Under the pieces are notes generated by a model, which worked only from the letters and a program-made list of their open reading frames with translations, ran no database searches and was not told the DNA's origin. The translations under genes were made by a program, and so were the position numbers. From a virus (lineage: Duplodnaviria; Heunggongvirae; Uroviricota; Caudoviricetes), in the IMG/VR virus record IMGVR_UViG_2700989413_000006, positions 1 through 64,000 of that record: 64,000 nt of DNA; one strand, given 5' to 3'. This document shows positions 1 through 64,000 of this stretch, piece after piece. Each line of letters opens with the position of its first letter. Positions within the stretch are counted from its first letter, which is position 1.

Positions 1-188
1 CCCTTCCCCCCCATAGCCTAAAAAGACATTTACATGAGAAGGAAGGGAGAAGGCATCTACTTCATCCGCGCCACATCGGAATGCGAACATTCCGTAGTTG
101 GTAAACGCCGACCCTAAGCAAAACGCACCCCTATCGAAAAGCAAGATGGGTCCACTGCCAGCAGTGAAAACTATCTTGGGTGCAATTG

Positions 189-206
189 TAGTCAGTGCTT
201 ACTGAT
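189..206. promoter_or_regulatory. Degenerate copy of the genome-wide dyad motif (AGTCAGTGCTTACTGATT) in the leading non-coding region
   Basis: Matches the AGTCAGT..ACTGAT arms of the repeated palindrome, with 2 central mismatches. Confidence 0.35.
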
Positions 207-1380
207 TTTTCAAGTGTAAGAAGTTTGGCTGAAACAATTTTTTAACAACAGAATCCACCGCTCCCTTCGGTCGCTCCATGCACATTGCACAACTCCTCTC
301 TCTATGTGTTATTACTCTATAACCGCCTATACACATACTTCCTATTGTTCTTACTCTCCGTGTATGATGAATTGTCCTTCTAGCTATACTTAGTGAAATC
401 CTTATTGTGTATAGTGTTCAGTATGTACTTATCATTATCCGTGTAGTTGTTAGAGTTTTTGTCTGTATTGATTGATTGTTTTTAAGATCGTTTGCAATTG
501 TTCTATTGTTTATCAGTTTGATTATTTAGATAGCATTATGAAAATATGCTGTTTGAGTTAAATTTGCTGTTCTATGGCTTAGTTGTAGATTAGTTGGATT
601 GTTTGTCAGTAAGTTATCTATTCTTTAGTACGTTTTGGAATTTAGTTGTCTGGTGTTTGAATAGTAAGTCCGTATTATCATATTACCGTGTGTATGTATG
701 GTCGTATGGTAATACGGTAATATGATATTTCAGCCTAGAGATAAATTGCCTCATTCTGTGCCTGATAATTTGTTATAGCGTTCAGGTAAAAAATACAGCC
801 TTAAAGTAAATTTGCTATTTGCGCATAGAATCGTTTTAGAGAGCGTTTTGCTTGTGTTTAGTATGATTCATCATCTTAGTGATAAAAGCGTCTCTAACGC
901 GCGTTTATAAGCGATTATAAGCGGTTTAAGTGAGAGTGTTTGCTTATCTGGTTTTAGCATGGTTCGGCGGGTAAGTAATGAATTAGTTACAAGTCAGTTT
1001 ATTTGTATAAAAATACTTATAAATCAATGATGTATAATAATATCTCTATAACTGTCTGTTTTTGCTTATTTTAGATAAAAAAGAGCCAGCTCTAAAGAGG
1101 GGCGTAGAGCTGGCAAAAAGGTGACTTGTGAGACTTTTTTCTCTATCAATACACTCGAATATTCTATCTAAAGAGCTTCGTTGTCTTGATGTGAGTATTG
1201 TATAAATACCGAGTAGGATTGAGAAGGGGAGGCGTTTATATCGCCTGTCGTGTTTCCTATTAAACTCATTATAATGATTGCATGTAACGTGAATTGAGTA
1301 CGGCGTATGTTGACCGCATTAATTGTTCTTGGAGCGATAGGGCTCATTTATTTGATGCTCAAAGCCATGAAGTGATTAGA

Positions 1381-1422
1381 CAAAAAGCCCTGAGCATTCA
1401 GGGCTATTATTTAGTTATTTTC
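1381..1422. terminator. Bidirectional rho-independent terminator downstream of the ArdA-like gene
   Basis: AGCCCTGA-GCAT-TCAGGGCT hairpin at 1386-1405, flanked by an A-run at 1382-1386 and a T-rich run at 1406-1422. Confidence 0.6.
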
Positions 1423-1494
1423 TAATTGCGCAAATATCTGCTCAAAAATGATCGATTTCATAAAAAAAGTGCAAATATTTGCTCAATATTGGTC

Positions 1495-2037
1495 TTAATA
1501 GTTTCGGTAAACCTTTCCTTCAGCTACAAGATAATCACTAATTAAAGCGTCGCGCCCGTAACGTTCATAGTCGAAATAACCTTGAATGTCCTCTGGTATT
1601 TCCAAAGCAGAACATTCATCAATTAAATAGCGTCCAAAATCATCGTCATTTTCGTAGTCACACACGTAACGATCTTCGTGCCACTCTTTAACGTTTGACC
1701 AATCAGCATAGTTGCCTTCAACTAATGCAGCGTATGTGCCAACTTCTTTAACTTCATCAAGATCAAGGCTTACTAAAAACTCAATTAAAGTTTCAAGCAT
1801 TTTGAATGATGAGACTTTTATCTCTTCGTTGGCCCAAGTGTCTTCTAGCTGCCAAAACTCTATCTCTACATCGCCTAACTCATCTATGAAGTCGTCGTAT
1901 TCATCAAAGTAAAGGTTAAAACCGTGTTGATGCGTAAAGCTGAAGCCTTCTAAGCGAAAACGTTTCTTGTTATCAGGGTTAGAAAACTTCGCTAAAAACT
2001 GCTCTATAGTCACTTGATCGTTAGTTTCGTAAGTCAT
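1495..2037 (-). CDS. ArdA-like antirestriction protein (highly acidic DNA mimic)
   Basis: 180 aa, ATG at 2035-2037. Very acidic composition with an IDYE(R/A)YGRD-type C-terminal segment as in the ArdA family. Sits at the edge of the gene block next to a large non-coding region. Confidence 0.45.
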   Translation of the reverse strand: MTYETNDQVTIEQFLAKFSNPDNKKRFRLEGFSFTHQHGFNLYFDEYDDFIDELGDVEIEFWQLEDTWANEEIKVSSFKMLETLIEFLVSLDLDEVKEVGTYAALVEGNYADWSNVKEWHEDRYVCDYENDDDFGRYLIDECSALEIPEDIQGYFDYERYGRDALISDYLVAEGKVYRNY

Positions 2038-2172
2038 TTTAAAAATCTCTTTGCTTGTTTCGATGAAGTAATTCTCTCAATCGGTTTTTGGACAAACAAT
2101 TTGTGGCTTAGGCGTTGTTATCTATAAAGAAAAACCGCTCACGATGGAGCGGTTAAATTAGTGGACTTTAAT

Positions 2173-2619
2173 TTAAAGACCATGATCTGTGGTCGTAAAA
2201 TCACTGTAATAAAGAGCGTTAGTGGCGGTGTCTAAATGTATTTTGGAAGTCATTTCAAAATATTCTTCACTCTCTTCGCAAACTAATTGATTATATTCGG
2301 AGTAACCGTCGGCAATAAGAGCAACCGCCTTTATTACAGCATCTATGAACTCTTGCTTGTATTCATCTAGGCGCATAGTGGTTTGTAGCTTTAAACCCGT
2401 TTCTGCACTTGTGTAGGTGTTCATGTGCTTATCTGGTTCGCCAATGTATATCTCAGCGAGATAAGGTTGATCTGCGGATATTATTGCGGTCTGAGCCTTA
2501 TTAGAGAAAAGCTCGTTTACTGCGCGGTATATGGTGACGATTGGTTGCATTATGTTTAACTCTATTTGTTTCGATAGAGTAATTTTCACAATTGAAAATA
2601 GGGGAGACAAAGGCAACAT
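2173..2619 (-). CDS. Hypothetical protein
   Basis: 148-aa ORF in the same orientation as its neighbours. AAGG lies 6 nt upstream of the ATG at 2619. Confidence 0.4.
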   Translation of the reverse strand: MLPLSPLFSIVKITLSKQIELNIMQPIVTIYRAVNELFSNKAQTAIISADQPYLAEIYIGEPDKHMNTYTSAETGLKLQTTMRLDEYKQEFIDAVIKAVALIADGYSEYNQLVCEESEEYFEMTSKIHLDTATNALYYSDFTTTDHGL

Positions 2620-2744
2620 ACGTTGCCTTGTGTGTTAGCCATACTGCATGCATTGCATGCAAACGCTGATATTTACATTGGTGCTGATTGAGTTTGCTGT
2701 GCATCCAAGTAATGCAACGCACGCCAAGATTATTACTAATGGCT

Positions 2745-2963
2745 TCATGCCTTCTTGCCTCTTCCCACAAACCAATCAACCGCCTTACAGAGCATTTCGT
2801 CTTTGTGCCAATCTTCAATCACACGAGTTTCATCTCGGTCATGTGAGAAGAGCGGGCCACAGTAGTTGTTCCATGTCATGTATACATATCGCCCATCAAG
2901 TAAGCGCAATCTAAAAGTTGGAACCAGGCACACGAAACCGCCGGGCATTCTTCTGCAAGTCAT
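2745..2963 (-). CDS. Hypothetical small protein
   Basis: 72-aa ORF whose stop overlaps the start of the downstream gene (translational coupling). Confidence 0.3.
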   Translation of the reverse strand: MTCRRMPGGFVCLVPTFRLRLLDGRYVYMTWNNYCGPLFSHDRDETRVIEDWHKDEMLCKAVDWFVGRGKKA

Positions 2964-3301
2964 GCTGCTTTCTGCTCCGCTTTTTGAATCAATGTGCGGA
3001 GGCGCCAGATATACGTTTGCGAATAGCCATTGTCCGTCTTGATCGGTATTGTTTTGAATCCGCGTGCCTCAGCTTGCGCAACTAGCTTTTTAGCTCTCTC
3101 TAAGCTGCCAATATGCTCTAACGCTGTCTTTGGCTGTGGTAACTTGCCACTCTTGCGTAGCCTTGCAATGTTTGAGTTGATCGTTCCTACAGTTCTGTTC
3201 AGCTCCTTTGCTATTTCAGCAATTGGAGTGTTATTAGAATGTAAGGTGATTAGCTTATTAATTTCACCTGTTGTCCAATAGCGAACCTTTGCAATGCTCA
3301 T
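2960..3301 (-). CDS. GcrA-like DNA-binding regulator
   Basis: N-terminal W-T-x-E...L...IAxxLxRTxxxIxxxIxRLR pattern typical of the GcrA N-terminal domain. 113 aa. Confidence 0.5.
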   Translation of the reverse strand: MSIAKVRYWTTGEINKLITLHSNNTPIAEIAKELNRTVGTINSNIARLRKSGKLPQPKTALEHIGSLERAKKLVAQAEARGFKTIPIKTDNGYSQTYIWRLRTLIQKAEQKAA

Positions 3302-3331
3302 GGCTTGCCCTCCAATGCATCAAAGCGAACT

Positions 3332-3967
3332 CTAATCTTCATTAATGACCTCCTGAGATTTGCCAGCCGTTTTAACCACAATGGAATACACAGGCTCAAA
3401 ATACTCTCGCGTTCCCTCTTCATCTCCCCATTTGTACCCACCGTAATGCAAAGCTTCCACTGTTGATTGCGGCATTTTCTTAGGAATTGCGACATACCCA
3501 TCTGGAATTTGTTTTGCATTATTAATCTGTGCATACAAATCTTGTCTTTCATCAAGCAATTCAGTGATTCGATCTTGAAGTTGTCCAACTTTAAAATCTT
3601 TTGATCTGTTTAATCTTTTTTCTTCAGCCAGTTCATCTAACAAGGAATCAATTTGTCGATAAAGGTTTTTCCAGTATTTATTAGGGTTTTCGTCATGATC
3701 TTTAAGAACCTCCCTAATTAATTGTTCTATATCTTCATCTGACATAAACTCCTTGTCACCGTTCGCTTTTTGCTCTGTAAGCTGTCTGTTAATCTCAGCG
3801 TCCAGCAAATCACGGGTTGATGGGTGGCCAACCTTCTCACCTACCAGATACCGCAAGCGTTCATTTTCAGCCTGCAACTCAATCAACTCGCACGGCGTAC
3901 CATGTCGACCGTCATGAAAGCCTGCTTTGTACGCTGCCTCTTTTATTTCTATTTGTTCATTCATCAC
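3332..3967 (-). CDS. Hypothetical protein (charged, coiled-coil-like)
   Basis: 211-aa ORF. Confidence 0.4.
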   Translation of the reverse strand: MMNEQIEIKEAAYKAGFHDGRHGTPCELIELQAENERLRYLVGEKVGHPSTRDLLDAEINRQLTEQKANGDKEFMSDEDIEQLIREVLKDHDENPNKYWKNLYRQIDSLLDELAEEKRLNRSKDFKVGQLQDRITELLDERQDLYAQINNAKQIPDGYVAIPKKMPQSTVEALHYGGYKWGDEEGTREYFEPVYSIVVKTAGKSQEVINED

Positions 3968-4404
3968 ATTAAGCCTTCTACAAAATCTCTAACTTCTTCA
4001 AAAACGTCAGTTCTAATGGAGTGTTCTATGCTTACGTTTTCTTCATACAGCCTTTGCTCTTCATTGAAGCCGTCTCTGCAAAACTTGAGAACCTTCTCTA
4101 GTGCCGACATCGCTGAACTAGGAATGGGTTGAGCGTCTATACTTTCCACGTCAACAACAATGATGTTTTGCACGTCGTAATCTCTTAGTACTTCATCCAG
4201 AAGCGATACAGTCAAATCACTTGAACCTGCAAGTATGCTAGAAAAAATCTCTATACGATCTTCATTGGATAGCGTGTTAAGCTTCTCTTCATCGCGAAAG
4301 AACGCCATGAAGTCATCACGATTAAATGTGTCAGTCTGCATTTGTTTAACTCTTGAAAACTTTCTTAAATTAATGATATTGAAAGTTTTTTGGATATTGC
4401 GCAT
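3964..4404 (-). CDS. Hypothetical protein
   Basis: 146-aa ORF, overlaps the upstream stop by 4 nt. Confidence 0.4.
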   Translation of the reverse strand: MRNIQKTFNIINLRKFSRVKQMQTDTFNRDDFMAFFRDEEKLNTLSNEDRIEIFSSILAGSSDLTVSLLDEVLRDYDVQNIIVVDVESIDAQPIPSSAMSALEKVLKFCRDGFNEEQRLYEENVSIEHSIRTDVFEEVRDFVEGLM

Positions 4405-4440
4405 TGGGGGTTAAGTTGCCAATGCGCAAAGCTTTATGCC

Positions 4441-5067
4441 TTAACCTGTGTACGGCTCAAGTTGCACATCGAAAACTTTCATTTCGAAATCCAACTCATC
4501 TGGAGTAAAGAAGTGTTCACTGTAAAGCCGGGCAGCTTCCGCCTGTGTTTCAGCCTTAATTTGAACTATCGCTGACGCTTTAAATTGCCACGTTGGTATT
4601 TTTGGCTCTTCAAGCGTAACGGGTCTGTTTGCAAACAATTTCATGTCATGCGATGCGTTCGAGTCATCCAAAAACTTAACTACAGTTCGGTCTTCGCTGA
4701 GTTCGACAGTTTGGAATTGATCTACTATTGCCCAGTTATGCCCATCGCCATCAATGAGTTGAATAAGCCTAATTTCAGTTTCAGGACTAGGGCCTAGCAA
4801 ATTTTTACTCCACTTGATCGTCTCTGAGCCAACGGTGCCATAATCTGCCTGTTTTAATGCCTGCCAAAGTTTCATTATTGGTCCAACCTTTGTAATGCTC
4901 ACTTCATCGTATATGCCTGAGTAAAAACCTTCCTCAAGAACAATCTTAATCGGTCCTTCCGCGTAGGTTTCATCTTCCAAATACTCACGCGCCTGTTGAA
5001 GCGTGTCGACGGTCTTTTCGCCACAACGTTGTGTGTCTTTTTCAATCCATTTAACTAAATATGGCAT
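4441..5067 (-). CDS. Hypothetical protein
   Basis: 208-aa ORF. Confidence 0.4.
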   Translation of the reverse strand: MPYLVKWIEKDTQRCGEKTVDTLQQAREYLEDETYAEGPIKIVLEEGFYSGIYDEVSITKVGPIMKLWQALKQADYGTVGSETIKWSKNLLGPSPETEIRLIQLIDGDGHNWAIVDQFQTVELSEDRTVVKFLDDSNASHDMKLFANRPVTLEEPKIPTWQFKASAIVQIKAETQAEAARLYSEHFFTPDELDFEMKVFDVQLEPYTG

Positions 5068-5143
5068 TTATCCTTCCACCTCTATCGCTTCAGGATCTAT
5101 CGTCCCGTCTAAATTTGTGTTGCTTGTTTCTGTGCCTAAATCA

Positions 5144-5662
5144 TTAATCTGCTTCATTGCTCATTACCTTTTCTGCAATGCTTTTCTTCAATACCTTGCG
5201 GGCTTGTCTCATTGCGTATTTAGCTCTACTGTCACAATGATGGTTCGCTAAATAGCGGTTATCGGTTAATTTCGTATGACCTTTAACGTGTCGACATCTG
5301 AGCTTTAGTTCATACATTTTGGCGGTGTCTAATATGTGATTTAGAACAACTGCAATGTCAGGACGAACCTTGCACTTACCGCTAAGGCAGAAGAGAACAC
5401 CCTCGTTGTCTACTTGAATTAAAACCTCATCACCTTTTGAGATAAGCCCGGCATTGATAGACGCCTGCAAAGAGTTAGCTACGCCTTTAAATTCCGCCTC
5501 GTAGCTGTCTTTAACAACGCCTTTAATAATGTTCCCACCCGCACGTTTGCCTCTGTCTGACGCGCACCAGTATCCAAACCCAGCGGCGCCAGTTTTGTGA
5601 CAAAGCGAGGCATCAGTCATTAATGTCACTAGCATAAGAGTGGTCCAACTCTTCAAAAACAA
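5144..5662 (-). CDS. RNase H (RNase HI-like)
   Basis: Catalytic pattern TDAS...E...D(N)EG...VKGH...N...D aligns with E. coli RNase HI residues D10/E48/D70/H124/D134. True start is probably an internal Met. Confidence 0.65.
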   Translation of the reverse strand: MFLKSWTTLMLVTLMTDASLCHKTGAAGFGYWCASDRGKRAGGNIIKGVVKDSYEAEFKGVANSLQASINAGLISKGDEVLIQVDNEGVLFCLSGKCKVRPDIAVVLNHILDTAKMYELKLRCRHVKGHTKLTDNRYLANHHCDSRAKYAMRQARKVLKKSIAEKVMSNEAD

Positions 5663-6812: not shown

Positions 6813-8015
6813 TTAGAAATTAACTACACGTTCGTCTTTGTTAAGGTGGCTGAAGGTCGGACTTGCCTGAACGGTCACAACCACGTCATGCTCCTTGTCA
6901 GTCAAGGTAAAGACACGCGTTTTAGGGTCAAACTCACACTTGACGTCATTTGGTTTAACAATGCGGTGATATGGCTCAAGCTCAATAAATTTATCTTCAG
7001 CCATAAAGCCGATGCACTGTTTAGCATCGCCGTTTTCGTCTTCCCAAAGTTTGCCATCGTCGGTTTTTCGGAAACCATTAGGTCGAATCATTAAACGGAA
7101 CTCAAATGTATCGTCTGTCATCATTCGTTCGATGCAGTCCGCATCAAAGTAAGTGAAGTCAAATGAATCCGAAACGTCATAACCTTTGTAGGTTGCTTCT
7201 TTTTGAAGGCGAATATCATCATAAGAAATGGTAGGTTTAATATTTAAAAACTTGCCTAGATCGCGGACTGAAATGTTTTGACCTTCTGATTTATTAATTT
7301 CCTTAATTAAGATGGTCAACATATCCATGTTGAACATTGAGAAACGCCCTACGTATTCAAGAATTTCGTCGATGCGATCTTTGTTTATTAGTACGTCGTT
7401 TGCATATTCGCGAATGGTTGACTCGCTGATGCTGCCAAAGTGTATGTTGTAATAAACACGACCCGGACGGTTATGGAAGTACTCATAGCGCGAGCTGCGA
7501 GAATCCGCATTCATAGTGAGAATGAAAAGTGTGTGCATTGGGTACATGCCATCAAGAAGTGTTAGCATGTCATTAACTTGTTCTGGCCTGGTGTAAACCT
7601 TGTCGAACTCATCAATGAAAACAATTTTTTGTTGGTTAATTTTTTGAAGGAAGCCTTTGTAGTCATCACCGACATAGGCTTCACTTTGTAAAATGCAAAT
7701 ACCGCCACTTTTCACAAAATCAACGCATAGCTTTTTAGCTAATAGAGTTTTACCTGTACCCTTAAAACCTTCAAGCATGATAGTTGTGGGTATTTCTGTG
7801 CGCTCATTGAAGGTTTCCATGATGCGGTCTTGATGTTGGTAGGCGTTACCATACGCTTTCGGAATTAATGTAAGCGGGTTGGTGATTTGAAGGTAGAAAC
7901 CGAGCTTGTCATGAAAACATAAGCGGTAAAAACCAGCAGGCAAGCTATCAATAGCGACGCCACTTACATCTGGAGCTAAGTGATAAGTGTCGTTTTGGCG
8001 AAGATATTGTGTCAT
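6813..8015 (-). CDS. AAA+ ATPase with a DnaC/IstB-like Walker A; function unknown, possibly a loader or remodeller
   Basis: Walker A GFKGTGKTLLAKKL and Walker B IVFIDEFDK. 400 aa, ATG at 8013-8015. Confidence 0.5.
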   Translation of the reverse strand: MTQYLRQNDTYHLAPDVSGVAIDSLPAGFYRLCFHDKLGFYLQITNPLTLIPKAYGNAYQHQDRIMETFNERTEIPTTIMLEGFKGTGKTLLAKKLCVDFVKSGGICILQSEAYVGDDYKGFLQKINQQKIVFIDEFDKVYTRPEQVNDMLTLLDGMYPMHTLFILTMNADSRSSRYEYFHNRPGRVYYNIHFGSISESTIREYANDVLINKDRIDEILEYVGRFSMFNMDMLTILIKEINKSEGQNISVRDLGKFLNIKPTISYDDIRLQKEATYKGYDVSDSFDFTYFDADCIERMMTDDTFEFRLMIRPNGFRKTDDGKLWEDENGDAKQCIGFMAEDKFIELEPYHRIVKPNDVKCEFDPKTRVFTLTDKEHDVVVTVQASPTFSHLNKDERVVNF

Positions 8016-53127: not shown

Positions 53128-53199
53128 AAAAAAACTCCGAAATTATTGAAATTATCGGAGCATTCTATTTTAGGAAATTTTAATTGTTCATCAAAATGC

Positions 53200-53778
53200 T
53201 TAGGCTATTTTATCTAAATGTCCTGCACGGCGCACATGATCTAAAATCGGCTCTAAGGCATCTTCAATTGTTTCATCATTCTGAATCAACATATCGTACT
53301 GGTTGATTTCGTTTATCCAATGAGATTCGACCTGAATCATGACCTCTAAACGTTCCGCAAGTTTCTGATCTGCTCGAACAATTAAACGTTGTAGACGGCT
53401 TTTAATATCAGCGTCGACAAAAACCCCAAGATATTTAATTTCATTTGCTTTCAGATAACGCTTAATCTTCTTATATCCATTTGGGTCGACAATAATTATG
53501 GCATTTCGATCATCTGGCAAGGTTTTGAAATTATCAATCGTTACGCCATATTCATAATTACCATGTTTATTTGTCTCAAGGAACTGATCAGCCTTTTTTA
53601 GTGCATCAAACTCTGTTTGAGTAATAAAGTGGTAGTGCAAACCATCAACCTCACCTTCCCGTTTCGGCCGTGATGTTGTGGTAACAATACGATTAAACCC
53701 ATATTTCTCGGTCAGCGCGTCAGCAATGGCTGTTTTGCCGCTGCACGTTGTTCCAGATAACAATACAAACATCGTCAT
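53200..53778 (-). CDS. gmk: Guanylate kinase-like nucleoside monophosphate kinase
   Basis: P-loop GTTCSGKT and TTTSRPKREGEVDGLHYHF (compare the E. coli Gmk segment S.TTR.PR.GEV.G..Y.F). Confidence 0.75.
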   Translation of the reverse strand: MTMFVLLSGTTCSGKTAIADALTEKYGFNRIVTTTSRPKREGEVDGLHYHFITQTEFDALKKADQFLETNKHGNYEYGVTIDNFKTLPDDRNAIIIVDPNGYKKIKRYLKANEIKYLGVFVDADIKSRLQRLIVRADQKLAERLEVMIQVESHWINEINQYDMLIQNDETIEDALEPILDHVRRAGHLDKIA

Positions 53779-53811
53779 ACCTCATAAGAAGAGGCGGTAG
53801 AACCGCCCCAA

Positions 53812-55515: not shown

Positions 55516-55527
55516 TGCTACACCTTA

Positions 55528-56037
55528 TTACTGCTTTGCAAATGAAGGAATAAATGAATCTTTAAATGGGGAATCGCCTTCTTTGGATTTCAGCATTTCG
55601 CTTTTAGCGTTTTTAATCACTTCTCTAACATGGGCTTGATGAGCTTTAAATACTTCTTCGCCGAAATGCTCTTTTGCAGCTTGCAGAAAGACCGCTAGCC
55701 AATGATTGGTAAAATCACGAAGCATGTGACCTAGATCAAGCAAATATTCATCTTCTGATTTTTGAGCCAATAATTGTGCATATTCCTGAATTGATTCTGT
55801 GCCGGTATTCACGACTAATGCTGCTTGAACCTGTGCAACCACCCCCATAATGGCTCTCATGTAAACTTCAAGCTGTTGTGGACCATTAACGTGAGCTTTT
55901 ACAAACTCTTCGGTTAAATCCTGAATCTTGCGCATGTGATCAGGAAGCAAAGTCATGAAGCGTAATTCCTCAGCATCTACATTTGACTCTTTTAATGCCT
56001 TGATTAAAGCTTCTAATAAATCTTCTGCGTTGCTCAT
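55528..56037 (-). CDS. Hypothetical protein
   Basis: 169 aa. Confidence 0.4.
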   Translation of the reverse strand: MSNAEDLLEALIKALKESNVDAEELRFMTLLPDHMRKIQDLTEEFVKAHVNGPQQLEVYMRAIMGVVAQVQAALVVNTGTESIQEYAQLLAQKSEDEYLLDLGHMLRDFTNHWLAVFLQAAKEHFGEEVFKAHQAHVREVIKNAKSEMLKSKEGDSPFKDSFIPSFAKQ

Positions 56038-56642
56038 AATTTTTCCTGTGTGTTTGCTTTGAAACGGTTAGCAATTTCTAAAAGCGATAATCCGCTCTCG
56101 ATACTTGGTACAGTTAAGCTCTCACTCTCGATATATAAGTTAGCGCTTACTTTATTTTCTTGTTGCGATTCTACATGATCATCTTTGGTATTCAAACTAT
56201 TTTTCTTTAGTTTAGTATTGATTGCATCACTTAATGAATAATTACCCTTTGAATTAACTGGAATTTCTTTATCTAGTTTTTCACCATTAATATTAGTAAG
56301 TTCTAACTTATAATCAAATTTAGAAGAAATAGAAATTCCTTGTTTAGCCAGCCGCTTCCCAACTTGTTTTCGCATTTCTGAACGATCAATGTAATAGAGA
56401 GCCTTACCTGCCTCAATTTCACGTTCACGCATTTCGGCAGCTTCACAGTGATGTCTGTGGATAGCGACTACGCAAACTGCATCCACCTCGCGCTCATTTC
56501 CCTCCTGAACATTATGGATACGCTTTAGGCATGCAGCATAATTAGGACGGTTGCCAGTATGAGGGCAAAAATCGCAGTAATAGGCATTTGTTCCGCTTCT
56601 GGATAATTCCAAATCGAGTACAGGAAGAGTTTTAGTTACCAT
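56034..56642 (-). CDS. Hypothetical Cys/His-rich protein
   Basis: 202 aa. Confidence 0.4.
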   Translation of the reverse strand: MVTKTLPVLDLELSRSGTNAYYCDFCPHTGNRPNYAACLKRIHNVQEGNEREVDAVCVVAIHRHHCEAAEMREREIEAGKALYYIDRSEMRKQVGKRLAKQGISISSKFDYKLELTNINGEKLDKEIPVNSKGNYSLSDAINTKLKKNSLNTKDDHVESQQENKVSANLYIESESLTVPSIESGLSLLEIANRFKANTQEKL

Positions 56643-57133
56643 GATCCTTGAACTCCTTTATAGGCAGCATACTCATCTGTATCAAGAATTAATTCGCTCA
56701 GTTCGCTTCTGATAGGTCCAAAATAATTTTGAAAAATTGACTTGATCTCAGCTTCTCGCCCTTTGTCAAAAATATTGGATGCTTCGCGACCGAAAATTGA
56801 TTGAGCATATTCAATTGGATTAATCGAATCCGAATTGGTAGACAATTCATCAACTAGATTACGTACAGCAGCCTTACTTAAATTCTTTACCCTTTCTGCT
56901 ACTGTTGAGTAAGAAAGTCCTTCGTATTTTTCAAGAATTTCGACCGTTCGGTGATACCCGCCCTTGTTATCATGGTAATCAACAGCCTTGATCGCCAAGC
57001 CTAATACTTCATCTTGAGTATGCTTGTGGACAGCAAAATATTCTGTGAGCTCCAAAACCTTTTCATTCGTTGTGGTTTTTGTCACCATAAACCGACAGTG
57101 TGGAACCCCAATAATTACTCTGTTCATTACCAA
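56636..57133 (-). CDS. Hypothetical protein
   Basis: 165 aa. Confidence 0.4.
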   Translation of the reverse strand: MVMNRVIIGVPHCRFMVTKTTTNEKVLELTEYFAVHKHTQDEVLGLAIKAVDYHDNKGGYHRTVEILEKYEGLSYSTVAERVKNLSKAAVRNLVDELSTNSDSINPIEYAQSIFGREASNIFDKGREAEIKSIFQNYFGPIRSELSELILDTDEYAAYKGVQGSW

Positions 57134-57681
57134 GACCCCAAAACTTCACCATAAAATTCTTGTCGTTGTGCCATGAGCTGAGCTGCCTTACGCTCTTCCT
57201 CTTCTTGTTTTCGTTGCCGTTCTTCCTCTGATTCATAGTTGAATGTAAATTTGTACATGTCATCAACTGGAATCCCGAACGTTTGAGACAAGGTTTCCAA
57301 GTATTTTTCAAAACCCTTTTCGGTAATCGCTGATGCGAAAGGCGCTCTAATGGCATTAATCTGAGAGTCGAGAGTCAAGTAAGTAATAAAATCATGGAAA
57401 TTATCAAATTCGTGCAAGATTTCGCTTTCACGTAAATCGCTATATTCACCTGCTTTACCTTTTACTTTTAGTGTTTTATTAAATTCGGTATCAAGAGTTG
57501 CACCATTACCTTCTTGATGGTGTTTGACTTGAGCGGTTTGATTTACCGCTGAGCCATAAATTTTGAATAATTGCGTGTTGCGTTTAGCTCCGTCCTGTAC
57601 CGATAACAAGAACATCGAATAATATTTTGTCCCACTCGTATGCAATGAGTAGGCACTTCTGACCACAATTTTTAAACTCAT
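57127..57681 (-). CDS. Hypothetical protein
   Basis: 184 aa. Confidence 0.4.
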   Translation of the reverse strand: MSLKIVVRSAYSLHTSGTKYYSMFLLSVQDGAKRNTQLFKIYGSAVNQTAQVKHHQEGNGATLDTEFNKTLKVKGKAGEYSDLRESEILHEFDNFHDFITYLTLDSQINAIRAPFASAITEKGFEKYLETLSQTFGIPVDDMYKFTFNYESEEERQRKQEEEERKAAQLMAQRQEFYGEVLGSW

Positions 57682-57744
57682 AGTAAAAGCACCTTGAAAA
57701 CTTCAACAATATTTTAAAAACAATGATTTGGAATCAAATACGAT

Positions 57745-58854
57745 TCAGACTTTACCCATATACTTAATGCGTAAACTTACTGCGCTAATTGGCGTAATTG
57801 GTATCGCTTTTCGATACGCTGTGCGAACGATTTCAGGGTCGACTTCATTGGGGTCACATCCAGCAGGCAACGTGGCCAACCTTGCTTTTATGCCAAAGCT
57901 ATTTATCTTTAAACATGCGTCGATCGCAGACAGAATTGCGGCAGGCTCTCCATCCCACATAATCGTCACGCACTCCAATCCCTCATCTTTAAGCTTTAGT
58001 AGTTCAGCCATTTGAGATTCATCACCACCTACCGAAAGATGCTTACCAAATGACGCGACAACTCCAACATTGCAAAGGAACTCGTCTTCCTTGAAGGCTT
58101 GATATATCGCCATAGCGTCAAAAGCACCCTCTCCCATGACGATTTCAACGTAACCTAGGGCATTATGGCCGTTATATAGGTAAGTGCCCGTAGACGCGAA
58201 ACCAGGAGGAAATAGATACTTCTTTTCAGCCTTTCCTGTAATGTCCCGACCCTGAAAAGACACAAGCTTGCCTTCAAGGTCCCTGACAGGAATGATGATT
58301 CTCATGCTGTAGTTTTGGTATTGCTTTTCACCCGTTGGGCCTATGTATGCAAACCAACCCTTTTGACAGAATTTCAGTCCAAATTCACGACACGTATCGA
58401 GCGTTATATTTCGCTCTTTAAGGTACTTTAGGTTCTGACCCATGATCGGCAAGTCATAGGCTTTTGGAAGCTTTAGATCGCCAATTTTGGTTTGTGTGGG
58501 TTCACTTTTGCGCTTTGGCTGCCAGCCCTGCTCCTGAGCAATTGCTTTAACATGCTCGACTATCTCTTTATTGCTTAGGCTATTACCGCCTATACCAGCC
58601 TTAATAAACTTCCATTTCGAGAATTTGGTTTCGCAATCACCATGAAAGCAGTTACCCAAACCCGTATCCTGATTCAGATAGACTTTCCAGCTTGAGTTAC
58701 CACATACCGGACATTCCTTAACATTCAACTGGATTCCGTTTTTTCCGCGAGTTACTTTGTATTCAAACCCTTCGCGGTTAAGCCAATACTCCATATCAAT
58801 GCGGTCTAATATCTCCGCTAAACTTTCTTGATCGCTCATATTGCAAAATCGCAT
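57745..58854 (-). CDS. dnaG: DnaG-like DNA primase (zinc-binding domain plus Toprim)
   Basis: Zinc ribbon CPVCGNSSW...CFHGDC and Toprim EIVMGEGAFDAMAI ... IMWDGE. Confidence 0.75.
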   Translation of the reverse strand: MRFCNMSDQESLAEILDRIDMEYWLNREGFEYKVTRGKNGIQLNVKECPVCGNSSWKVYLNQDTGLGNCFHGDCETKFSKWKFIKAGIGGNSLSNKEIVEHVKAIAQEQGWQPKRKSEPTQTKIGDLKLPKAYDLPIMGQNLKYLKERNITLDTCREFGLKFCQKGWFAYIGPTGEKQYQNYSMRIIIPVRDLEGKLVSFQGRDITGKAEKKYLFPPGFASTGTYLYNGHNALGYVEIVMGEGAFDAMAIYQAFKEDEFLCNVGVVASFGKHLSVGGDESQMAELLKLKDEGLECVTIMWDGEPAAILSAIDACLKINSFGIKARLATLPAGCDPNEVDPEIVRTAYRKAIPITPISAVSLRIKYMGKV

Positions 58855-58865
58855 TAGATAAAATT

Positions 58866-58914
58866 AGCGCTTATTTATACTAGCACAAATTTATAAATAA
58901 GCGCTTACTATAAT
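58866..58914. promoter_or_regulatory. 14-bp perfect inverted repeat AGCGCTTATTTATA / TATAAATAAGCGCT (12-nt spacer), overlapping a conserved 18-mer ATAAGCGCTTACTATAAT (58897-58914)
   Basis: Between the helicase stop and the primase start. Confidence 0.5.
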
Positions 58915-58926
58915 ATTGGGTTAAAT

Positions 58927-60330
58927 TTATTCGACGCTAATCACTTCTTCCAAGAACCTCATCATGGACACATTCTGCTTAATCACCACAGTAACCCCCA
59001 TCTCTTGGTTTCGAGAAGCTGCAAAGTACAATCGAGCCTGACCTTTCGCTCTCTCTTCCTCTGTAATGTTGATGGAGATTGCAACGTCAGCGGTCCTGAT
59101 TTTGTTAAAGTCCTCAGCTACGTGCTCTGCCTTGGCTACCGTTGACTTAAAGCCCTCACGGTTGGTCTGAGTAGCTGTCAGTAACGCCACATTCTCTTCA
59201 AAAGCAATCGCGCGTAAATCAACATAGACAACTCTTGAGTTCTCTTTTGGGTCATTTGTACGAATATCTGGACGCATCAAATCTGCATAGTCCACAATGA
59301 TCATATCGAACTTGATTGGCGGTCTTATCGTTCCATCAGGGTTCCGCCCAGGATTCTTATACCTATCAATTAATGCTCTTAGCTGTGACGGAGAAAATGT
59401 ACCGGAACCAAATTCATGAATAATAAATTTGCCCGCCGTCTTGGCTACCGTCTCGACCGCAGTTGCAACACTTGCAGCCTTCGACGCCAATTCTTTCATG
59501 ATCACTTTTGAAATAGAGGCATCTAAACGGTCTGCAATAATGTCTTTACCAACTTCTAGCGTTACATATAGAACGTTGTATTTAGCAAAGCTTGCGATAC
59601 GGCCAAAGTGAATAAGCGCTTGCGTCTTACCTGCTTTTGCACCGCCCATTAATAGAGACAGCTCCTTGCGTCCCCAACCTCTGTGATACAGCAGATCATC
59701 AAGTTCTTTACAGCCAGTAGTAATGCCTGTCGGAGGTACTTTGCCTGTCAGCTTCTCGATACGTGCCAGCTTACGATTCAACGCCTGAGCGAAGAAGTCA
59801 TAACCAACACCCTCTTCATTCAATCCGACCGCAATAGCTTCCTTGATACGCGCTTCAATCTTGGCGTAATTCCCTGCCTCAAGATCAGGAACAGAATTAA
59901 CAATCGCATTGGATACCGCCTGTTTTCGCGCGAACTCAACAACCTTTTCTTCAACGAAAGCCTTGTCAGTGACATAGATGCCAATTAATTTCTTCCTTGC
60001 TTCCACAATTGCCGCTAAAGTTTCTCGCTTATAAACTTTAGAAGCAGCTTTATCCTTGATAATTTGGACAACAGAAGCAGGATCAGGAGAACATCCATAT
60101 TTATTGAAGTGTTGGAGCGCAATATCGACCAGACATGCTTCACCCTGATTTTCGAAAAATTCTGGCTTCAGAATATGGGCGGCTCTTCTAAGAAACTCAT
60201 CGTCACGTAAAGTTAAAGCCGCAATTTTTGATTGAAACTCATCGTCGTAATCAAACTTTTCTTCGGTGAAGCCTTCGAGTTCTTTATCAACGACCTCTTC
60301 TTCATGAATTTCGGCCACAGCAGTAGACAT
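58927..60330 (-). CDS. dnaB: DnaB-family replicative helicase
   Basis: Walker A GGAKAGKTQ, Walker B DMIIVDYADL, H4-like LLTATQTNREG. 467 aa, no intein. Confidence 0.8.
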   Translation of the reverse strand: MSTAVAEIHEEEVVDKELEGFTEEKFDYDDEFQSKIAALTLRDDEFLRRAAHILKPEFFENQGEACLVDIALQHFNKYGCSPDPASVVQIIKDKAASKVYKRETLAAIVEARKKLIGIYVTDKAFVEEKVVEFARKQAVSNAIVNSVPDLEAGNYAKIEARIKEAIAVGLNEEGVGYDFFAQALNRKLARIEKLTGKVPPTGITTGCKELDDLLYHRGWGRKELSLLMGGAKAGKTQALIHFGRIASFAKYNVLYVTLEVGKDIIADRLDASISKVIMKELASKAASVATAVETVAKTAGKFIIHEFGSGTFSPSQLRALIDRYKNPGRNPDGTIRPPIKFDMIIVDYADLMRPDIRTNDPKENSRVVYVDLRAIAFEENVALLTATQTNREGFKSTVAKAEHVAEDFNKIRTADVAISINITEEERAKGQARLYFAASRNQEMGVTVVIKQNVSMMRFLEEVISVE

Positions 60331-60366
60331 ATAAGATAATCCTTATAGAAAATAGATGGCTTACGT

Positions 60367-60798
60367 TTAAGATTTAGATTTCGACTTTCTCTCTAGCTCA
60401 TCAACTAGGTCTTCAATCCCCTTAGTTGGTGAGAACTCGGAAATTTGGTGTTTGAAAAGAACACGCGCACGATAACGACCGTTTTTATCACCATTCAAAT
60501 AACAACGAAGCGAGATCGTTTCTGCATCCGCAGCACGGATGTATCCACGCACAACTTCGCCGTCTGTTTTAATGACTACAATTTCCTGTTCTTGCTCTTG
60601 CAGCTTGCGAACAAACTTCATGTAGCCCATTTCTTCAATTTCGCATTCGTTCGCAGGCAGCCTACGCCCATACGTTTTACGCGGCTGAAATTGAAGTTTT
60701 TGCTTTTCTTCCGTATTTAAGTAAATAGACTCCTTTGAAATTGGAGCGCTATTGCCGAACTTGTTTTGTATCGCAAGTTCTTTCTGCCATTCGCTCAT
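60367..60798 (-). CDS. Hypothetical protein
   Basis: 143 aa; preceded by a promoter-like copy of the 18-mer. Confidence 0.4.
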   Translation of the reverse strand: MSEWQKELAIQNKFGNSAPISKESIYLNTEEKQKLQFQPRKTYGRRLPANECEIEEMGYMKFVRKLQEQEQEIVVIKTDGEVVRGYIRAADAETISLRCYLNGDKNGRYRARVLFKHQISEFSPTKGIEDLVDELERKSKSKS

Positions 60799-60856
60799 TA
60801 AAACCTCGAAACATTAGTAATTACTATAAAAACGATATTATCAAATTATAGTAAGC

Positions 60857-60874
60857 GCTTATTAATATTTTAAG
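60857..60874 (-). promoter_or_regulatory. Second copy of ATAAGCGCTTACTATAAT (minus orientation); candidate operator overlapping the -10 (TATAAT) for the orf143-helicase operon
   Basis: Identical 18-mer to 58897-58914 in inverted orientation, about 58 nt upstream of the ATG at 60798. Confidence 0.45.
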
Positions 60875-60885
60875 AGAAAAAAGCA

Positions 60886-61617
60886 TTAAATACTGGATTT
60901 AATAGCTTGGTTGATGATCGAAATGTCAAAAGACTCTAAAGCTTTTTCAATGCGAAGTGCATCATAGCGATAAATGCATGTCCCTAATGCATAATGCTGC
61001 ACTTGACGCATCCGCACCTGCTTAACAATAAAATCTTCATAATCAACTTGCATTGGACTGTTATGAAAAAGTGTAGCGGTAAAATATGGACTTTTAGCGA
61101 TCTGGAGCGAAGCTTGACAATAAGACTCCCACTCATGGAACACTTCAATTAACAGTTCTTCTTTTTTTAGTTGAGCAGGTCTAGGTGGCAAAGGTCTACC
61201 ATTCGCAATCACCTTAAAGCATTTATCAAATGCGGTTTTTAAATAGAAGTCATAACGCATTCCCAAAGCATCAATTGCCTGTCTGAGTCGCCAAAATGAC
61301 AAGGCCTCACGGCTGAGTAAGAAATCTCGCTCCTTAATGGGTTTAACGAATTCGGCCGCCTTATGATCAATAGCTTTTCTATAAAAGTTTCGATATTCAT
61401 TTTTGAAAAGCCGAAAGAAGTAATAAGTGGCTTGCATGGGATGCATCAGCCTATAGTCAAACCACTTGGTTGTCATTAACTGCGTTTCTAGCTTCCGCTC
61501 TTTCTTGGGAATGTATTGAATGGTGAGAATTTCGTAATGTTCTAAATCAAGGTCATTGCCATAAAAGTGACCCGCCCAATCTAAATACTTGGGTATTTGT
61601 TTTTCAACTTGGGACAT
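60886..61617 (-). CDS. Hypothetical protein
   Basis: 243 aa. Confidence 0.4.
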   Translation of the reverse strand: MSQVEKQIPKYLDWAGHFYGNDLDLEHYEILTIQYIPKKERKLETQLMTTKWFDYRLMHPMQATYYFFRLFKNEYRNFYRKAIDHKAAEFVKPIKERDFLLSREALSFWRLRQAIDALGMRYDFYLKTAFDKCFKVIANGRPLPPRPAQLKKEELLIEVFHEWESYCQASLQIAKSPYFTATLFHNSPMQVDYEDFIVKQVRMRQVQHYALGTCIYRYDALRIEKALESFDISIINQAIKSSI

Positions 61618-61733
61618 CCGATCGTTTCCGAATAATTAATATAAAAACTTAAATATTATAGAAAGTATTATTTAATTATTCGTTAGCACTTCAAAAACCC
61701 AAGTTTTCGGAAAAGACCCAAGTGCCGGAATGT

Positions 61734-62855
61734 TTAAGCCGGTCTTTTAGAGTTATAAAGTTCAATTAATGCGTGTTGTAGAGTTACGCCTTTAATCTGG
61801 GCATATTCGCGGACGTATTCCTTGGTTACGCCTTCATCCAGCTTTAATAGAGCCTCATACAATCGTTTTATGCCATTTAATTCAAATTCATCCTTTTCTT
61901 CTACTGGCTTTTCAATAGCAGACTTATAAACGCCAGATTCAACGATAAATTCTTTTAATGGGTTCTCTTTGTTAAGGTCCTCTTCGCTGAGATCACTACC
62001 CAAAAACTCTTGGGTCGATACTTTTGGAAGCCTAATGTTTTCTAAAGGAGTGCCTGTCTTTTTAGCTGAATCGGAAGAAGGCTTGCTGTCATGGATTTCT
62101 TTCGCTTCGCCTTCAATGAAGTTATCGGTTTTTAAACTTACTTCAAAATAAATGCCCGTGATATTACGTCCTGTCTTGATTTTCTTTTCAGTAATAAACA
62201 GGTCAGTAAAACTATTAATCTGATCAATTGCCGGCTTCAATACACGTTTATTGAAGTTGGTCATATCCGTACTTTCGGGATTTTTCTTGTCTCTATACTC
62301 ATGAGGAAGAAGGCCCATCTTGGCACGGAAGTCCTCGAAGTCATAAACAGGAGTTTTACGTATATCCGAATTTTTCCAACTAGCGACCAACTCATACAGA
62401 CGGATGCCATATTTACTGGTCACATCGCGTAAATTGTCGATGGCATATTTGGTAAAGGTTCCTTCTAGCTTGGTTACTAGAGGAATCACATCAGGAGCTA
62501 GGGTGATCGTTAATAATGCATCATCCTTAACGTATGAAACTCGTGATACCCAACGTGACCGAACCACCTCAATCTTGCCATTTCGCATTGTGGTGTAAGA
62601 AAAACGTCTTTCAAATAAGGTATCTTCGGCTTCCTTCAGTGTTTTATATGCCGCGCTCACTGTTGTATTAAATTTTTGGGCATATAAGGAAGCAGGAATC
62701 TCGATAATCGTTTCGGCAGTCAGATCTGCATTCTTGTTTCTGGAAACTAAAATGGCGAGTAGAATTATTCTTTGCTCAGCAGTGTCCAAAGCGTAGCTTG
62801 CATTAATCAATGCATTCGCTTTATAAACATCTGAATTCCTAATAAGTTCTGCCAT
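61734..62855 (-). CDS. Rep_3-family (RepB/RepA-like) iteron-plasmid replication initiator
   Basis: N-terminal NALINASYALDTAEQRIILLAILVSRNKN...FNTTVSAAYKTLKEAEDTLFERRF matches the Rep_3 initiator pattern. Adjacent iteron array. Confidence 0.8.
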   Translation of the reverse strand: MAELIRNSDVYKANALINASYALDTAEQRIILLAILVSRNKNADLTAETIIEIPASLYAQKFNTTVSAAYKTLKEAEDTLFERRFSYTTMRNGKIEVVRSRWVSRVSYVKDDALLTITLAPDVIPLVTKLEGTFTKYAIDNLRDVTSKYGIRLYELVASWKNSDIRKTPVYDFEDFRAKMGLLPHEYRDKKNPESTDMTNFNKRVLKPAIDQINSFTDLFITEKKIKTGRNITGIYFEVSLKTDNFIEGEAKEIHDSKPSSDSAKKTGTPLENIRLPKVSTQEFLGSDLSEEDLNKENPLKEFIVESGVYKSAIEKPVEEKDEFELNGIKRLYEALLKLDEGVTKEYVREYAQIKGVTLQHALIELYNSKRPA

Positions 62856-62996
62856 ATATTCCGTTCAGAAAGGTTTTATTGGTTTTCGTAAAAGGTACAT
62901 GATTAGATAATGTTTGTAAATCTAGTTATCCAGCAGGAATTGAGCTGATTTATATTTAAGGATTTTGACCAAAACATGACAATGTAATGACATTAC

Positions 62997-63560
62997 CGGA
63001 GTTTTTGTACCTTTATATGCATTCCTTCGGAATTTTTGTACCGTTATAGGGTTTTTAAACGGAGAAAATGTACCGTTATGACTCCCCTATCGGAGTTTTT
63101 GTACCGTTATCTTGATTTTGGCTATTTGCTTAGCGGAGAAAATGTACCTTTATAGGGGTGTGAACGGAGAAAATGTACCGAAATCCTTTTATGTATTCTT
63201 TAAGTTAATGGAAAAATGGCTTTAAAAGGTACTTATTCGGAGTTTTTGTACCTTTATAGGACTTTTAACGGAGAAAATGTACCGTTAAAAGCGATTTAAC
63301 GGAATTTTTGTACCTTTTAAGCTATTGAAATTAAAGGCCAGAATTTTTGTACCGTTAAAAAGGAATATTTGTACCGTAATTAAAACTTTTTGTACCGTTA
63401 AAACGGAGTATTTGTACCGCTGAAACGGAGTTTTTGTACCTTAATAGGCTTTCAAAGCATTTATTAGCAATCGTTTCAGGCCCTCTAAAAGAAAAAAAGA
63501 AAAGATTTTAAATTCAAATAGGTTTTAAGTTATCCACAACGGAATTTTTGTACCGTTATT
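62997..63560. repeat. Iteron array (oriV): about 15 copies of an 18-20-bp repeat CGGAR(TTTTT/AAAAT)GTACCGTTA, with phased spacing (about 30-32 bp, then 20-23 bp)
   Basis: Direct repeats read from the sequence; two alternating subtypes (TTTTTG / AAAATG); located next to the rep gene. Confidence 0.85.
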
Positions 63561-63651
63561 ATCAGAACACTTGTAATTCAAAGCATAGAGCGTTTTTAAA
63601 AAAAAGAGTTCACAGAAAGAAGCGAAACATGTTTAAGTTTTAAATTCAAAT
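63506..63651. repeat. Two copies of the AT-rich 14-mer TTTTAAATTCAAAT (63506-63519 and 63638-63651); candidate DNA-unwinding-element repeats
   Basis: Exact duplicate 14-mers flanking the last iteron and the DnaA box. Confidence 0.45.
63530..63538 (+). promoter_or_regulatory. Perfect DnaA box TTATCCACA
   Basis: Exact consensus 9-mer, inside the iteron region. Confidence 0.6.
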
Positions 63652-64000
63652 TAATGTCTGTTTTGGAAATAAGAGAAAACAAGGATGATGCATGTTGTGA
63701 ATAACATCAGGAATGTAACAAACGAAAGAAAAAAAGAAGCCATTATTAACGACTCATAGGCGCACACTGTAAACAAACAGTGACATGGATATTGTTTTGA
63801 ATAGTAGAAGCTGTACATCCTGAAATCAGGATGCACAGCATGAATAGGGTTAAAAGTTTCATGCTAAAAATAATTTCTTTTCAGCAGAACGGCGATTAAC
63901 CAAACCAGGAATCCGTTTACCGTTGTCAAAAACCCAACGATCAAACTGATTTGCAGCTCCAGTAAAATTGCCTTGGTTGAGTAAAACCAGCATTGTGCTT

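Follow-up and report, generated by a model that had tools for sequence, protein, structure and literature searches.

A junction between two lineages of Acinetobacter phage-plasmids in 64 kb of viral DNA

Genes for phage-type DNA replication and genes for plasmid maintenance stand together in a 64,000-nucleotide stretch of IMG/VR virus record IMGVR_UViG_2700989413_000006 (below, the window, meaning this whole stretch), and the question that the locus raises is what kind of molecule would carry both. An earlier interpretation made from the letters alone (the sequence-only reading) had taken the two gene sets as toolkits of one element, an extrachromosomal prophage or phage-plasmid larger than the window. 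Comparison with plasmid records placed the DNA almost certainly among the "AB" phage-plasmids of Acinetobacter baumannii, and it showed that the window contains a junction between two lineages of that group.

Two lineages in one window

The window is gene-dense, with most genes on the minus strand, and contains no tRNA genes. A megablast search of 24 kb of the window against 50,697 phage records gave no match. Against PLSDB, megablast matched 155 plasmid records, all of them from Acinetobacter and mostly from A. baumannii isolated from patients; each of these plasmids is circular and 105 to 128 kb long, and pABTJ2 itself (NC_020524.1) is among them. Overall, the window is 99.7 to 100% identical in nucleotide sequence to plasmids of the pABTJ2 and pABUH5 types. 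Outside the stretch homologous to the window, the matching plasmids encode terminase, portal, major capsid, and HK97 gp10-like proteins; tail tube, tail assembly, minor tail, and giant (tape-measure-type) tail proteins; and a holin, an endolysin, and two ParB-domain proteins. The terminase, portal, capsid, and tail genes for which the sequence-only reading had proposed to search the flanks were thus present on circular relatives, and its view of an extrachromosomal element extending beyond the window was supported. Its remark that no virion genes occur within the 64 kb also held; the right end of the window enters a lysozyme gene, the first gene of the lysis/virion side.

The relatives have been described. 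The 2014 paper on pABTJ2 described a plasmid "carrying many phage-like elements," termed "phage remnants" (PMC4411360). Pfeifer et al. (2021) assigned pABTJ2-like plasmids to the Acinetobacter-specific AB phage-plasmid group, which consists of two ~110-kb subgroups with 54 persistent genes in common and with replication and parA genes that are "highly divergent" between them (PMC7969092). The window is related to recognised members of this group and has plasmid replication and partition genes, and from these likenesses its DNA is almost certainly that of an A. baumannii AB phage-plasmid. Elements of this group are predicted to be temperate, siphovirus-like, and ~110 kb in size, kept in the cell as low-copy circular plasmids.

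Local BLAST of the window against the fetched plasmid records, together with a three-way alignment of the window and both parents, resolved its make-up. Positions 1 to 50006 matched NZ_CP131951.1 (107 kb) at 99.95% identity and positions 48936 to 50778 matched the same plasmid at 100%; positions 49970 to 64000 matched pAYP-A2 (110,967 bp, pABTJ2 type) at 99.7%, and positions 51734 to 64000 matched three further pABTJ2-type contigs at 100%. Outside the overlap, the two lineages align with each other in patches only, at 65 to 72% identity. The Rep protein of the 107-kb lineage is WP_000095317.1, which is rep type R3-T9 (pABUH5-114, GR30), whereas pABTJ2 is R3-T3 (GR24) (Lam et al. 2022, PMC9927589); therefore, the left 50 kb of the window is of the pABUH5 type and the right 14 kb is of the pABTJ2/pABUH4 type. 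This composition had escaped the sequence-only reading: its phage toolkit (1 to 50.8 kb) is pABUH5-type DNA, its iteron, Rep, ParA, DnaB, and DnaG block (50.1 to 64 kb) is pABTJ2-type DNA, and native versions of both exist in each lineage.

Plasmids of the pABUH5 type (NZ_CP131951.1, NZ_CP027608.1, and pABUH5-114; R3-T9/GR30), which probably correspond to subgroup AB-g2 of Pfeifer et al. (2021), match window positions 1 to 50778 gene for gene at 99.95 to 100%, apart from 6 bp fewer in dnaE and one extra 12-bp repeat unit in the window. From position 50779 on they diverge, and their ParA, ligase, DnaG, DnaB, and Rep are only 28 to 32% (protein) or 65 to 67% (DNA) identical. Conversely, plasmids of the pABTJ2/pABUH4/pAYP-A2 type (110,967 bp; R3-T3/GR24), probably AB-g1, match the window from ~50121 to 64000, from the recombinase gene through the start of the lysozyme gene, at 99.7 to 100%; to the left of 50121 the identity is only 65 to 72%, dnaE is split by either a NUMOD4/HNH gene or an intein, and recA is longer. 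Between the two maintenance blocks, Rep is 28%, ParA 32%, and the ParA partner 35% identical, and the pABUH5-type iterons are distinct, their core being AACTACC. Given the different iterons and the 28 to 32% identity of Rep and ParA, the two replicons should be compatible.

The shared segment and the molecule behind the junction

In the alignment of the window with both parents, positions 50121 to 50778 (~660 bp) were at least 99.7% identical in both lineages. This segment starts just upstream of a small recombinase gene and ends 24 bp short of its stop codon. To its left the window is of the pABUH5 type and to its right of the pABTJ2 type, and the crossover lies somewhere inside it. Pinning the crossover more closely by the single-nucleotide polymorphisms (SNPs) at 50280 and 50394 was abandoned because both alleles occur in both lineages, a mixture that indicates repeated exchange at the locus. 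In more distant Acinetobacter relatives (ParA 81 to 87% identical), the recombinase region is 70 to 76% identical, no better than its flanks; strong purifying selection was therefore rejected as the cause of the 660-bp identity, which points instead to recent transfer. When species-representative genomes were scanned with the 3' end of the pABTJ2-type recombinase gene, only a pABTJ2-type contig of A. geminorum was returned.

Upstream of the recombinase gene lie all three occurrences of the motif AAAAATRTAATAAAA in the 64 kb, a number reached in none of 100 shuffles. The putative site there consists of a 15-6-15 palindrome and a third arm just ahead of the recombinase start codon. The distant relatives keep these arms, the right and third of which show matching changes (C to T and G to A). 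The spacer of the palindrome holds the left boundary of the identical segment. The gene product has a tyrosine recombinase catalytic domain, and the arms could be the core site of such an enzyme or, equally, an autoregulatory operator.

We lean towards reading the window as a junction, one of two, in a ~220-kb cointegrate. The pABUH5-type CobT, the CobS-like protein, and the pABTJ2-type ParA each served as the query of an exact-protein look-up, and the 24 to 29 longest contigs were examined for each. Among these contigs, one contained the hybrid junction: AYOH01000009.1, from the PacBio HGAP genome of strain UH9907, whose 222,013 bp are close to the sum of the two plasmids, ~218 kb. Wright et al. 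(2014) described this molecule as pABUH5 and pABUH4 joined. Its junction has the same orientation (pABUH5-left/pABTJ2-right) and uses the same recombinase segment, and in the window, as in the pABUH5::pABUH4 cointegrate, pABUH5-type DNA is joined to pABTJ2/pABUH4-type DNA within the integrase gene. The two sequences are 99.955% identical over window positions 36376 to 58427. That the 222-kb contig might be a dimer of a hybrid was considered and dropped, since one copy was reported for each marker and the depositors describe two different plasmids joined. In addition, a look-up of Rep returned no place where a pABTJ2-type rep gene lies next to pABUH5-type tail genes, which is consistent with pABTJ2-type sequence continuing beyond the window.

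Several points weigh against the cointegrate, or against the phage nature of its parts. The junction is absent from all 155 finished PLSDB plasmids, no PLSDB match to a synthetic reciprocal junction (pABTJ2-left/pABUH5-right) covered more than 68% of it, and each of the 155 plasmids has exactly one copy of the shared segment; stable cointegrates would therefore be rare, or they are resolved or avoided in finished assemblies. The 64 kb shows one junction only, and neither the reciprocal junction nor the size of the molecule. The window also differs from the UH9907 contig, by the 6-bp indel in dnaE and by 4 SNPs, of which two lie in the shared segment. A 660-bp repeat is a place where an assembler can mis-join two co-resident plasmids. 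At the putative site, the spacer differs by lineage (GGCTTC versus TGTATC), and spacer heterology disfavours site-specific exchange by tyrosine recombinases, so homologous recombination across the 660 bp is at least as likely; the element also encodes its own RecA, SbcCD-like, and RuvC-like proteins. Finally, no phage is known for the AB group (PMC7969092), and pABTJ2 has been called non-inducible (PMC4411360).

The alternative that survives best is an assembly chimera, in which the two plasmids were separate circles in one strain and the assembler switched between them by way of the identical segment. The two plasmids are documented to reside together, the junction coincides with the sole long identical stretch, it was seen in neither orientation among the finished plasmids, and it occurred in just 1 of the ~24 to 29 long contigs per look-up. 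However, the PacBio reads behind the public junction contig have a median length of ~3.5 kb, enough to span 660 bp, and the differences between the window and that contig, even inside the shared segment, mean that the junction has been recovered at least twice. A chimera is unlikely, although it deserves to be taken seriously.

A single recombinant of ~107 to 111 kb, with a pABUH5-type body, a pABTJ2-type maintenance block (possibly with the lysis and tail genes), and a second crossover elsewhere, is quite improbable. In the AB group, divergence and exchangeability are greatest for the replication and parA genes (Pfeifer et al. 2021), and the shared SNP alleles show that exchange at this locus has been repeated; but such an arrangement occurs in none of the 155 finished plasmids, the sole public junction contig is 222 kb long and described as both plasmids joined, and the Rep look-up returned no pABTJ2-type rep beside pABUH5-type tail genes. 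A non-viral plasmid or chromosomal island with captured phage replication modules, an option that the sequence-only reading had kept, would fit the lack of virion genes inside the 64 kb and the first description of pABTJ2 as a non-inducible plasmid with "phage remnants," but it is very hard to maintain when both parents have a module that looks complete, with terminase, portal, major capsid, tail tube and tape-measure-type proteins, holin, and lysin, and when the window already ends in the lysozyme gene.

The recombinase gene and its 15-6-15 site might further be regarded as a dedicated, reversible point of fusion and separation for co-resident, compatible phage-plasmids. We hold this idea to be doubtful.

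Gene content and relatives

Genes were identified by Pfam, PHROGs, and NCBIfam profile searches and by the names given by the Prokaryotic Genome Annotation Pipeline (PGAP) on identical or near-identical DNA (Table 1). The profiles supported nearly every gene in the list of replication and recombination functions drawn up by the sequence-only reading; NrdAB, ThyX, Dut, and guanylate kinase were named through PGAP annotation of identical or near-identical plasmid DNA. The plasmid maintenance set that it had proposed was likewise recovered: a Rep_3 initiator with 15 iterons, ParA with a partner and repeats, a tyrosine recombinase, and Doc.

Table 1. Features of the window, in order of position (ORF, open reading frame; UDG, uracil-DNA glycosylase; HTH, helix-turn-helix; TRF, Tandem Repeats Finder; E, E value)
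Feature	Position	Strand	Evidence or remark
ArdA antirestriction protein	1495-2037	-	Pfam ArdA E 8.8e-12; PGAP name on identical DNA
RNase H	5144-5620	-	phrog_531 E 2.5e-33; Pfam RNase_H E 1e-3, below cutoff
AAA ATPase, clamp-loader-like	6813-8015	-	Pfam AAA; phrog_2376 E 8e-112; weak phrog_168 clamp loader
DnaQ-like 3'-5' exonuclease	11820-12353	-	Pfam RNase_T E 1.4e-23
Second, toprim-type primase-like protein	16194-16976	-	phrog_849 DNA primase E 1.4e-86
Dut (20792-21250), then small ORF, then ThyX (21540-22400)	20792-22400	-	PGAP names, 100% identical plasmid DNA
Candidate antitoxin, 120 aa	22631-22993	+	precedes Doc; without family match
Doc toxin	22993-23412	+	Pfam Fic/DOC E 2.8e-14; TIGR01550 DOC_P1 66 bits, cutoff 38.65
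NrdB (23439-24431) and NrdA (24511-26901)	23439-26901	-	PGAP names on identical DNA
RuvC-like Holliday junction resolvase	27961-28554	-	phrog_159 E 6e-50
SbcC-like ATPase; SbcD-like nuclease	29291-31243; 31243-32352	-	Pfam SMC_N/AAA_23/SbcC_Walker_B; Metallophos
RecA with mini-intein	35215-36711	-	Pfam RecA E 2.9e-38 in two stretches; Intein_splicing/PT-HINT
5'-3' (flap) exonuclease	36722-37786	-	Pfam 5_3_exonuc_N E 3e-26 and 5_3_exonuc
gp32-like single-strand DNA-binding protein	37843-38730	-	Pfam gp32 E 1.6e-20
DnaE (Pol III alpha) with C-terminal UDG-superfamily domain	40072-43521	-	Pfam PHP, DNA_pol3_alpha, finger, HHH_6, UDG 1000-1131
Sigma-factor-like protein (weak)	44318-45001	-	phrog_351 E 3.7e-5; TIGR02937 22.5 bits, below cutoff
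CobS-like AAA_5 ATPase	45031-46230	-	Pfam AAA_5, CbbQ_C; TIGR01650 CobS partial
CobT-like VWA protein	46370-48427	-	Pfam CobT, CobT_C
66-aa gene	48587-48787	-	PGAP annotation; divergent from HTH regulator
HTH regulator	49389-49853	+	phrog_8 and other regulator families
Putative recombinase site, palindrome	50102-50116 / GGCTTC / 50123-50137		15-6-15
Putative recombinase site, third arm	50186-50200
Small tyrosine recombinase, 194 aa, catalytic domain only	50218-50802	+	Pfam Phage_integrase E 4.6e-27, residues 21-183; partial Xer and invertase matches
12-bp palindromic repeats TCTATATAGATT x2.7, upstream of parA	51301-51332	.	TRF score 57
ParA ATPase	51417-52094	+	Pfam AAA_31/CbiA/VirC1; NF041546 ParA_partition partial
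ParA partner, 142 aa	52091-52519	+	35% identical to pABUH5-type partner
Guanylate kinase	53200-53778	-	PGAP name; PF00625 on identical gene
ATP-dependent DNA ligase	53812-55515	-	PGAP name; PF01068 on identical gene
DnaG primase	57745-58854	-	Pfam DNAG_N, Toprim_2
DnaB-like helicase	58927-60330	-	Pfam DnaB_C
Rep_3 initiator RepM (R3-T3/GR24)	61734-62855	-	Pfam Rep3_N E 4.8e-29, Rep3_C E 1.1e-15
Predicted origin: 15 iterons, core GGARWWWWTGTACC	62998-63554	+	spacing 31 and 22 bp
A-rich tract in origin	63487-63512
DnaA box, one perfect copy	63530-63538		alone not significant
Lysozyme gene, 3' end (142 nt)	63859-64000	-	mapped from pAYP-A2 annotation; PF00959 on same gene

In the pABTJ2-type block, the initiator scored 266.4 bits against NF038290 repM_Acin (cutoff 250) and is of type R3-T3/GR24 according to PMC9927589; its rep gene is 100% identical to that of pABTJ2-type contigs. 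It has the Rep3_N (WH1) and Rep3_C (WH2) domains of an R3-T3/GR24 replicon, with the iteron array beside rep. The array comprises 14 copies of GGARWWWWTGTACC, of which 13 are exact and the other differs at one base, plus a degenerate fifteenth near 63384 that was seen by eye. With up to two mismatches allowed, 21 matches to the core were found against 8.5 expected, and none of 100 shuffles reached 21. The pABTJ2 paper listed four 22-bp repeats only (PMC4411360). The DnaA box claimed by the sequence-only reading is present as one perfect copy, although 40 of 100 shuffles have at least one and the box is not significant alone. A single perfect iteron core (GGAGAAAATGTACC) was seen at 59390-59403 (+), inside the dnaB-like gene and 3.6 kb from the array; it may be a chance occurrence or a handcuffing or regulatory site. 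A partial inverted iteron (CATATATTCCGTT) at 62853-62867 overlaps the rep start codon and is a possible autorepression site.

Elsewhere in this block, the TCTATATAGATT repeats upstream of parA are a candidate centromere or operator. The ligase gene is a single 567-aa ORF in the window and in pAYP-A2, and in many pABTJ2-type contigs it appears as a 471-aa ORF with a separate ORF of 148 to 153 aa; the gene may thus be polymorphic at its 5' end, through a frameshift or an indel. In the ligase search, the pABUH5-type cluster was represented only by a 96%-identical member. A homologue search with ParA did not return the pABUH5-lineage orthologue, and one with the sigma-like protein did not return the orthologue of the other lineage, the word index being insensitive at ~30% identity. 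In a distant Acinetobacter relative (a 107,963-bp contig, positions 11661 to 12986), a gene for a Y-family polymerase (IMS/IMS_C) is inserted between the ParA partner and the guanylate kinase side, and this region would appear to accept cargo.

Just left of the junction, positions 48587 to 49853 are a probable regulatory (immunity-like) region, in which a 66-aa gene and an HTH regulator are separated by an AT-rich spacer (48800 to 49390, ~600 bp, G+C content ~0.35). At 49016 to 49078 the spacer has three repeats, TTTATATAAAC(T/G)GTTAATTTT, also written TAAA(C/T)NGTTAATTTT, and it contains several inverted repeats; by its layout it looks like a lysis-lysogeny switch. In the window this pABUH5-type regulator adjoins pABTJ2-type maintenance genes.

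Within the pABUH5-type body, DnaE carries a UDG-superfamily domain that the sequence-only reading had not mentioned, and related ~110-kb phages keep this fusion over its whole length. The pABTJ2 lineage has a dnaE broken by a NUMOD4/HNH homing-endonuclease gene (785 aa, 191 aa, and a UDG-containing 421 aa), and other pABTJ2-type dnaE genes are interrupted by an intein (Hint/Hom_end_hint matches). The 6 bp lacking in the window relative to NZ_CP131951.1 and AYOH01000009.1 are absent at 41109, so its DnaE has 1,149 aa versus 1,151 aa in every other pABUH5-type contig fetched; the exact 1,149-aa protein had no entry in a 153-billion-gene index. RecA contains a mini-intein at about residues 216 to 371 of 498 aa, where NCBIfam models for both the N- and the C-terminal part of an intein match. 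At 2,199 nt, the pABTJ2-type recA is much longer, suggesting a larger intein with an endonuclease. For the "sigma-like factor" of the sequence-only reading, the gene is there and its matches are all sub-threshold (E 4e-5 to 7e-5); PGAP names the pABTJ2-type protein at the same position a member of the sigma-70 family.

Further observations concern single genes of this body. There are two clamp-loader-like ATPases, at 6813-8015 and 20109-20792, and two primase-like genes, the toprim protein in the body and DnaG beside DnaB in the maintenance block. The extra repeat unit relative to NZ_CP131951.1 and AYOH01000009.1 lies in the ORF at 27261-27878, which has three copies of the 12-bp unit TAACACGAGCGG (27789-27823) versus two in those records. 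Amid the recombination genes, at 32399-33009 (-), a SleB-type cell-wall hydrolase gene (Hydrolase_2, 32399-32797) is followed directly by a gene for a 70-aa HicA-like protein (weak, below cutoff). At 33442-34394 (-), two neighbouring genes (172 and 145 aa) match phrog_5427 from end to end and are therefore a tandem duplication of a gene without an assigned function.

The combination of genes, which the sequence-only reading had called unusual, is the standard design of the described AB group, and DnaE-UDG is common to other ~110-kb phages. Phages of this size from Rhizobium (RHEph10 group), Pseudomonas (nickie), Stenotrophomonas, Klebsiella, and Escherichia encode full-length DnaE-UDG at 37 to 43% identity and ~100% coverage. 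Members of the SSU5/pHCM2 supergroup (Klebsiella ST13-OXA48phi12.3 and Escherichia Cyrano) have the same overall design, but their DnaE is 37 to 39% identical, tblastn with the window Rep found no match in SSU5-like phages, and the relatedness is one of distant protein similarity only, without a megablast match to any phage record. Structural and recombination genes are related between the AB and SSU5 groups, which are nevertheless separate, distantly related groups with a mean weighted gene repertoire relatedness (wGRR) of 0.08 (PMC7969092). P1, with RepA and iterons, ParAB, Cre-lox, and Phd-Doc, has a functionally analogous set, and the likeness extends to function and the Doc family; the recombinase here is a 194-aa, catalytic-domain-only protein, and the virion type and replisome differ. 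The P1, N15, or SSU5 type of architecture suggested by the sequence-only reading therefore stands as a functional likeness, whereas membership in any of the three was rejected, the resemblance being functional only or distant at the protein level. The nearest phage-database matches of the window Rep were 4- to 8-kb Acinetobacter replicons (~40% identity) and Burkholderia KS14 (26%), which places Rep in the Acinetobacter plasmid pool. A Rep from this pool together with a DnaE common to ~110-kb phages agrees with the published view that the phage body is conserved and the plasmid module variable and adapted to the host.

Three chromosome-sized records were also encountered. CP171394.1 (4.04 Mb) and CP171396.1 (3.86 Mb) contain the pABTJ2-type recombinase, ParA, and Rep region inside megabase "chromosome" records, reflecting either chromosomal integration of a phage-plasmid or merged assemblies. 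In CP095784.1 (4.55 Mb), short fragments of unrelated genes are patchworked around the recombinase, ParA, and Rep genes, and the record looks like a scrambled or contaminated assembly.

Proposed working and wider meaning

The anatomy described above was observed directly, and the working proposed here takes its functions from the gene families. In the plasmid state, RepM would bind the iterons and open the origin together with host DnaA, which would act at the neighbouring box and A-rich tract. Copies would be segregated by ParA with its 142-aa partner and the 12-bp repeats, and Doc with its antitoxin would kill cells that lose the element. The small recombinase, acting at the 15-6-15 site upstream of its own gene, would most likely resolve multimers. 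In the lytic state, bulk replication would probably be driven by the element's own replisome and deoxynucleotide genes (DnaE-UDG, DnaQ, DnaB, two primases, gp32, flap exonuclease, RNase H, ligase, NrdAB, ThyX, Dut, and Gmk). The cointegrate would form by recombination between co-resident elements at the shared segment, as reported for UH9907, giving a ~220-kb molecule with two origins and two partition systems. At about twice the monomer size, it would presumably be too large to package intact and would first have to be resolved through the shared segment. The tyPPing preprint considers cointegrates in general likely to be impaired in the lytic cycle.

The element, the AB group, the R3-T3 replicon, and the joining of two such plasmids have all been published, and the present analysis adds little to their biology; the extent of the shared segment, the signature of recent transfer, the three-arm site, and the full iteron count are small refinements. 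These ~110-kb elements are nevertheless very common in clinical A. baumannii, with each marker protein found in 1,800 to 5,200 blocks of the assembly collection, and some AB members bear resistance genes, such as msrE in some PLSDB members. If the recombinase locus were indeed a dedicated exchange point, it would homogenise the 660-bp segment, and a phage body could swap its replication and partition (incompatibility) module or travel as a double-replicon cointegrate; the resolvase locus of phage-plasmids, and not random homologous exchange, would then drive their modular evolution. For typing, rep types R3-T3 and R3-T9 can sit together on one molecule, and the switch of lineage at the recombinase gene matters for judging assemblies and for deciding which phage body has which incompatibility module.

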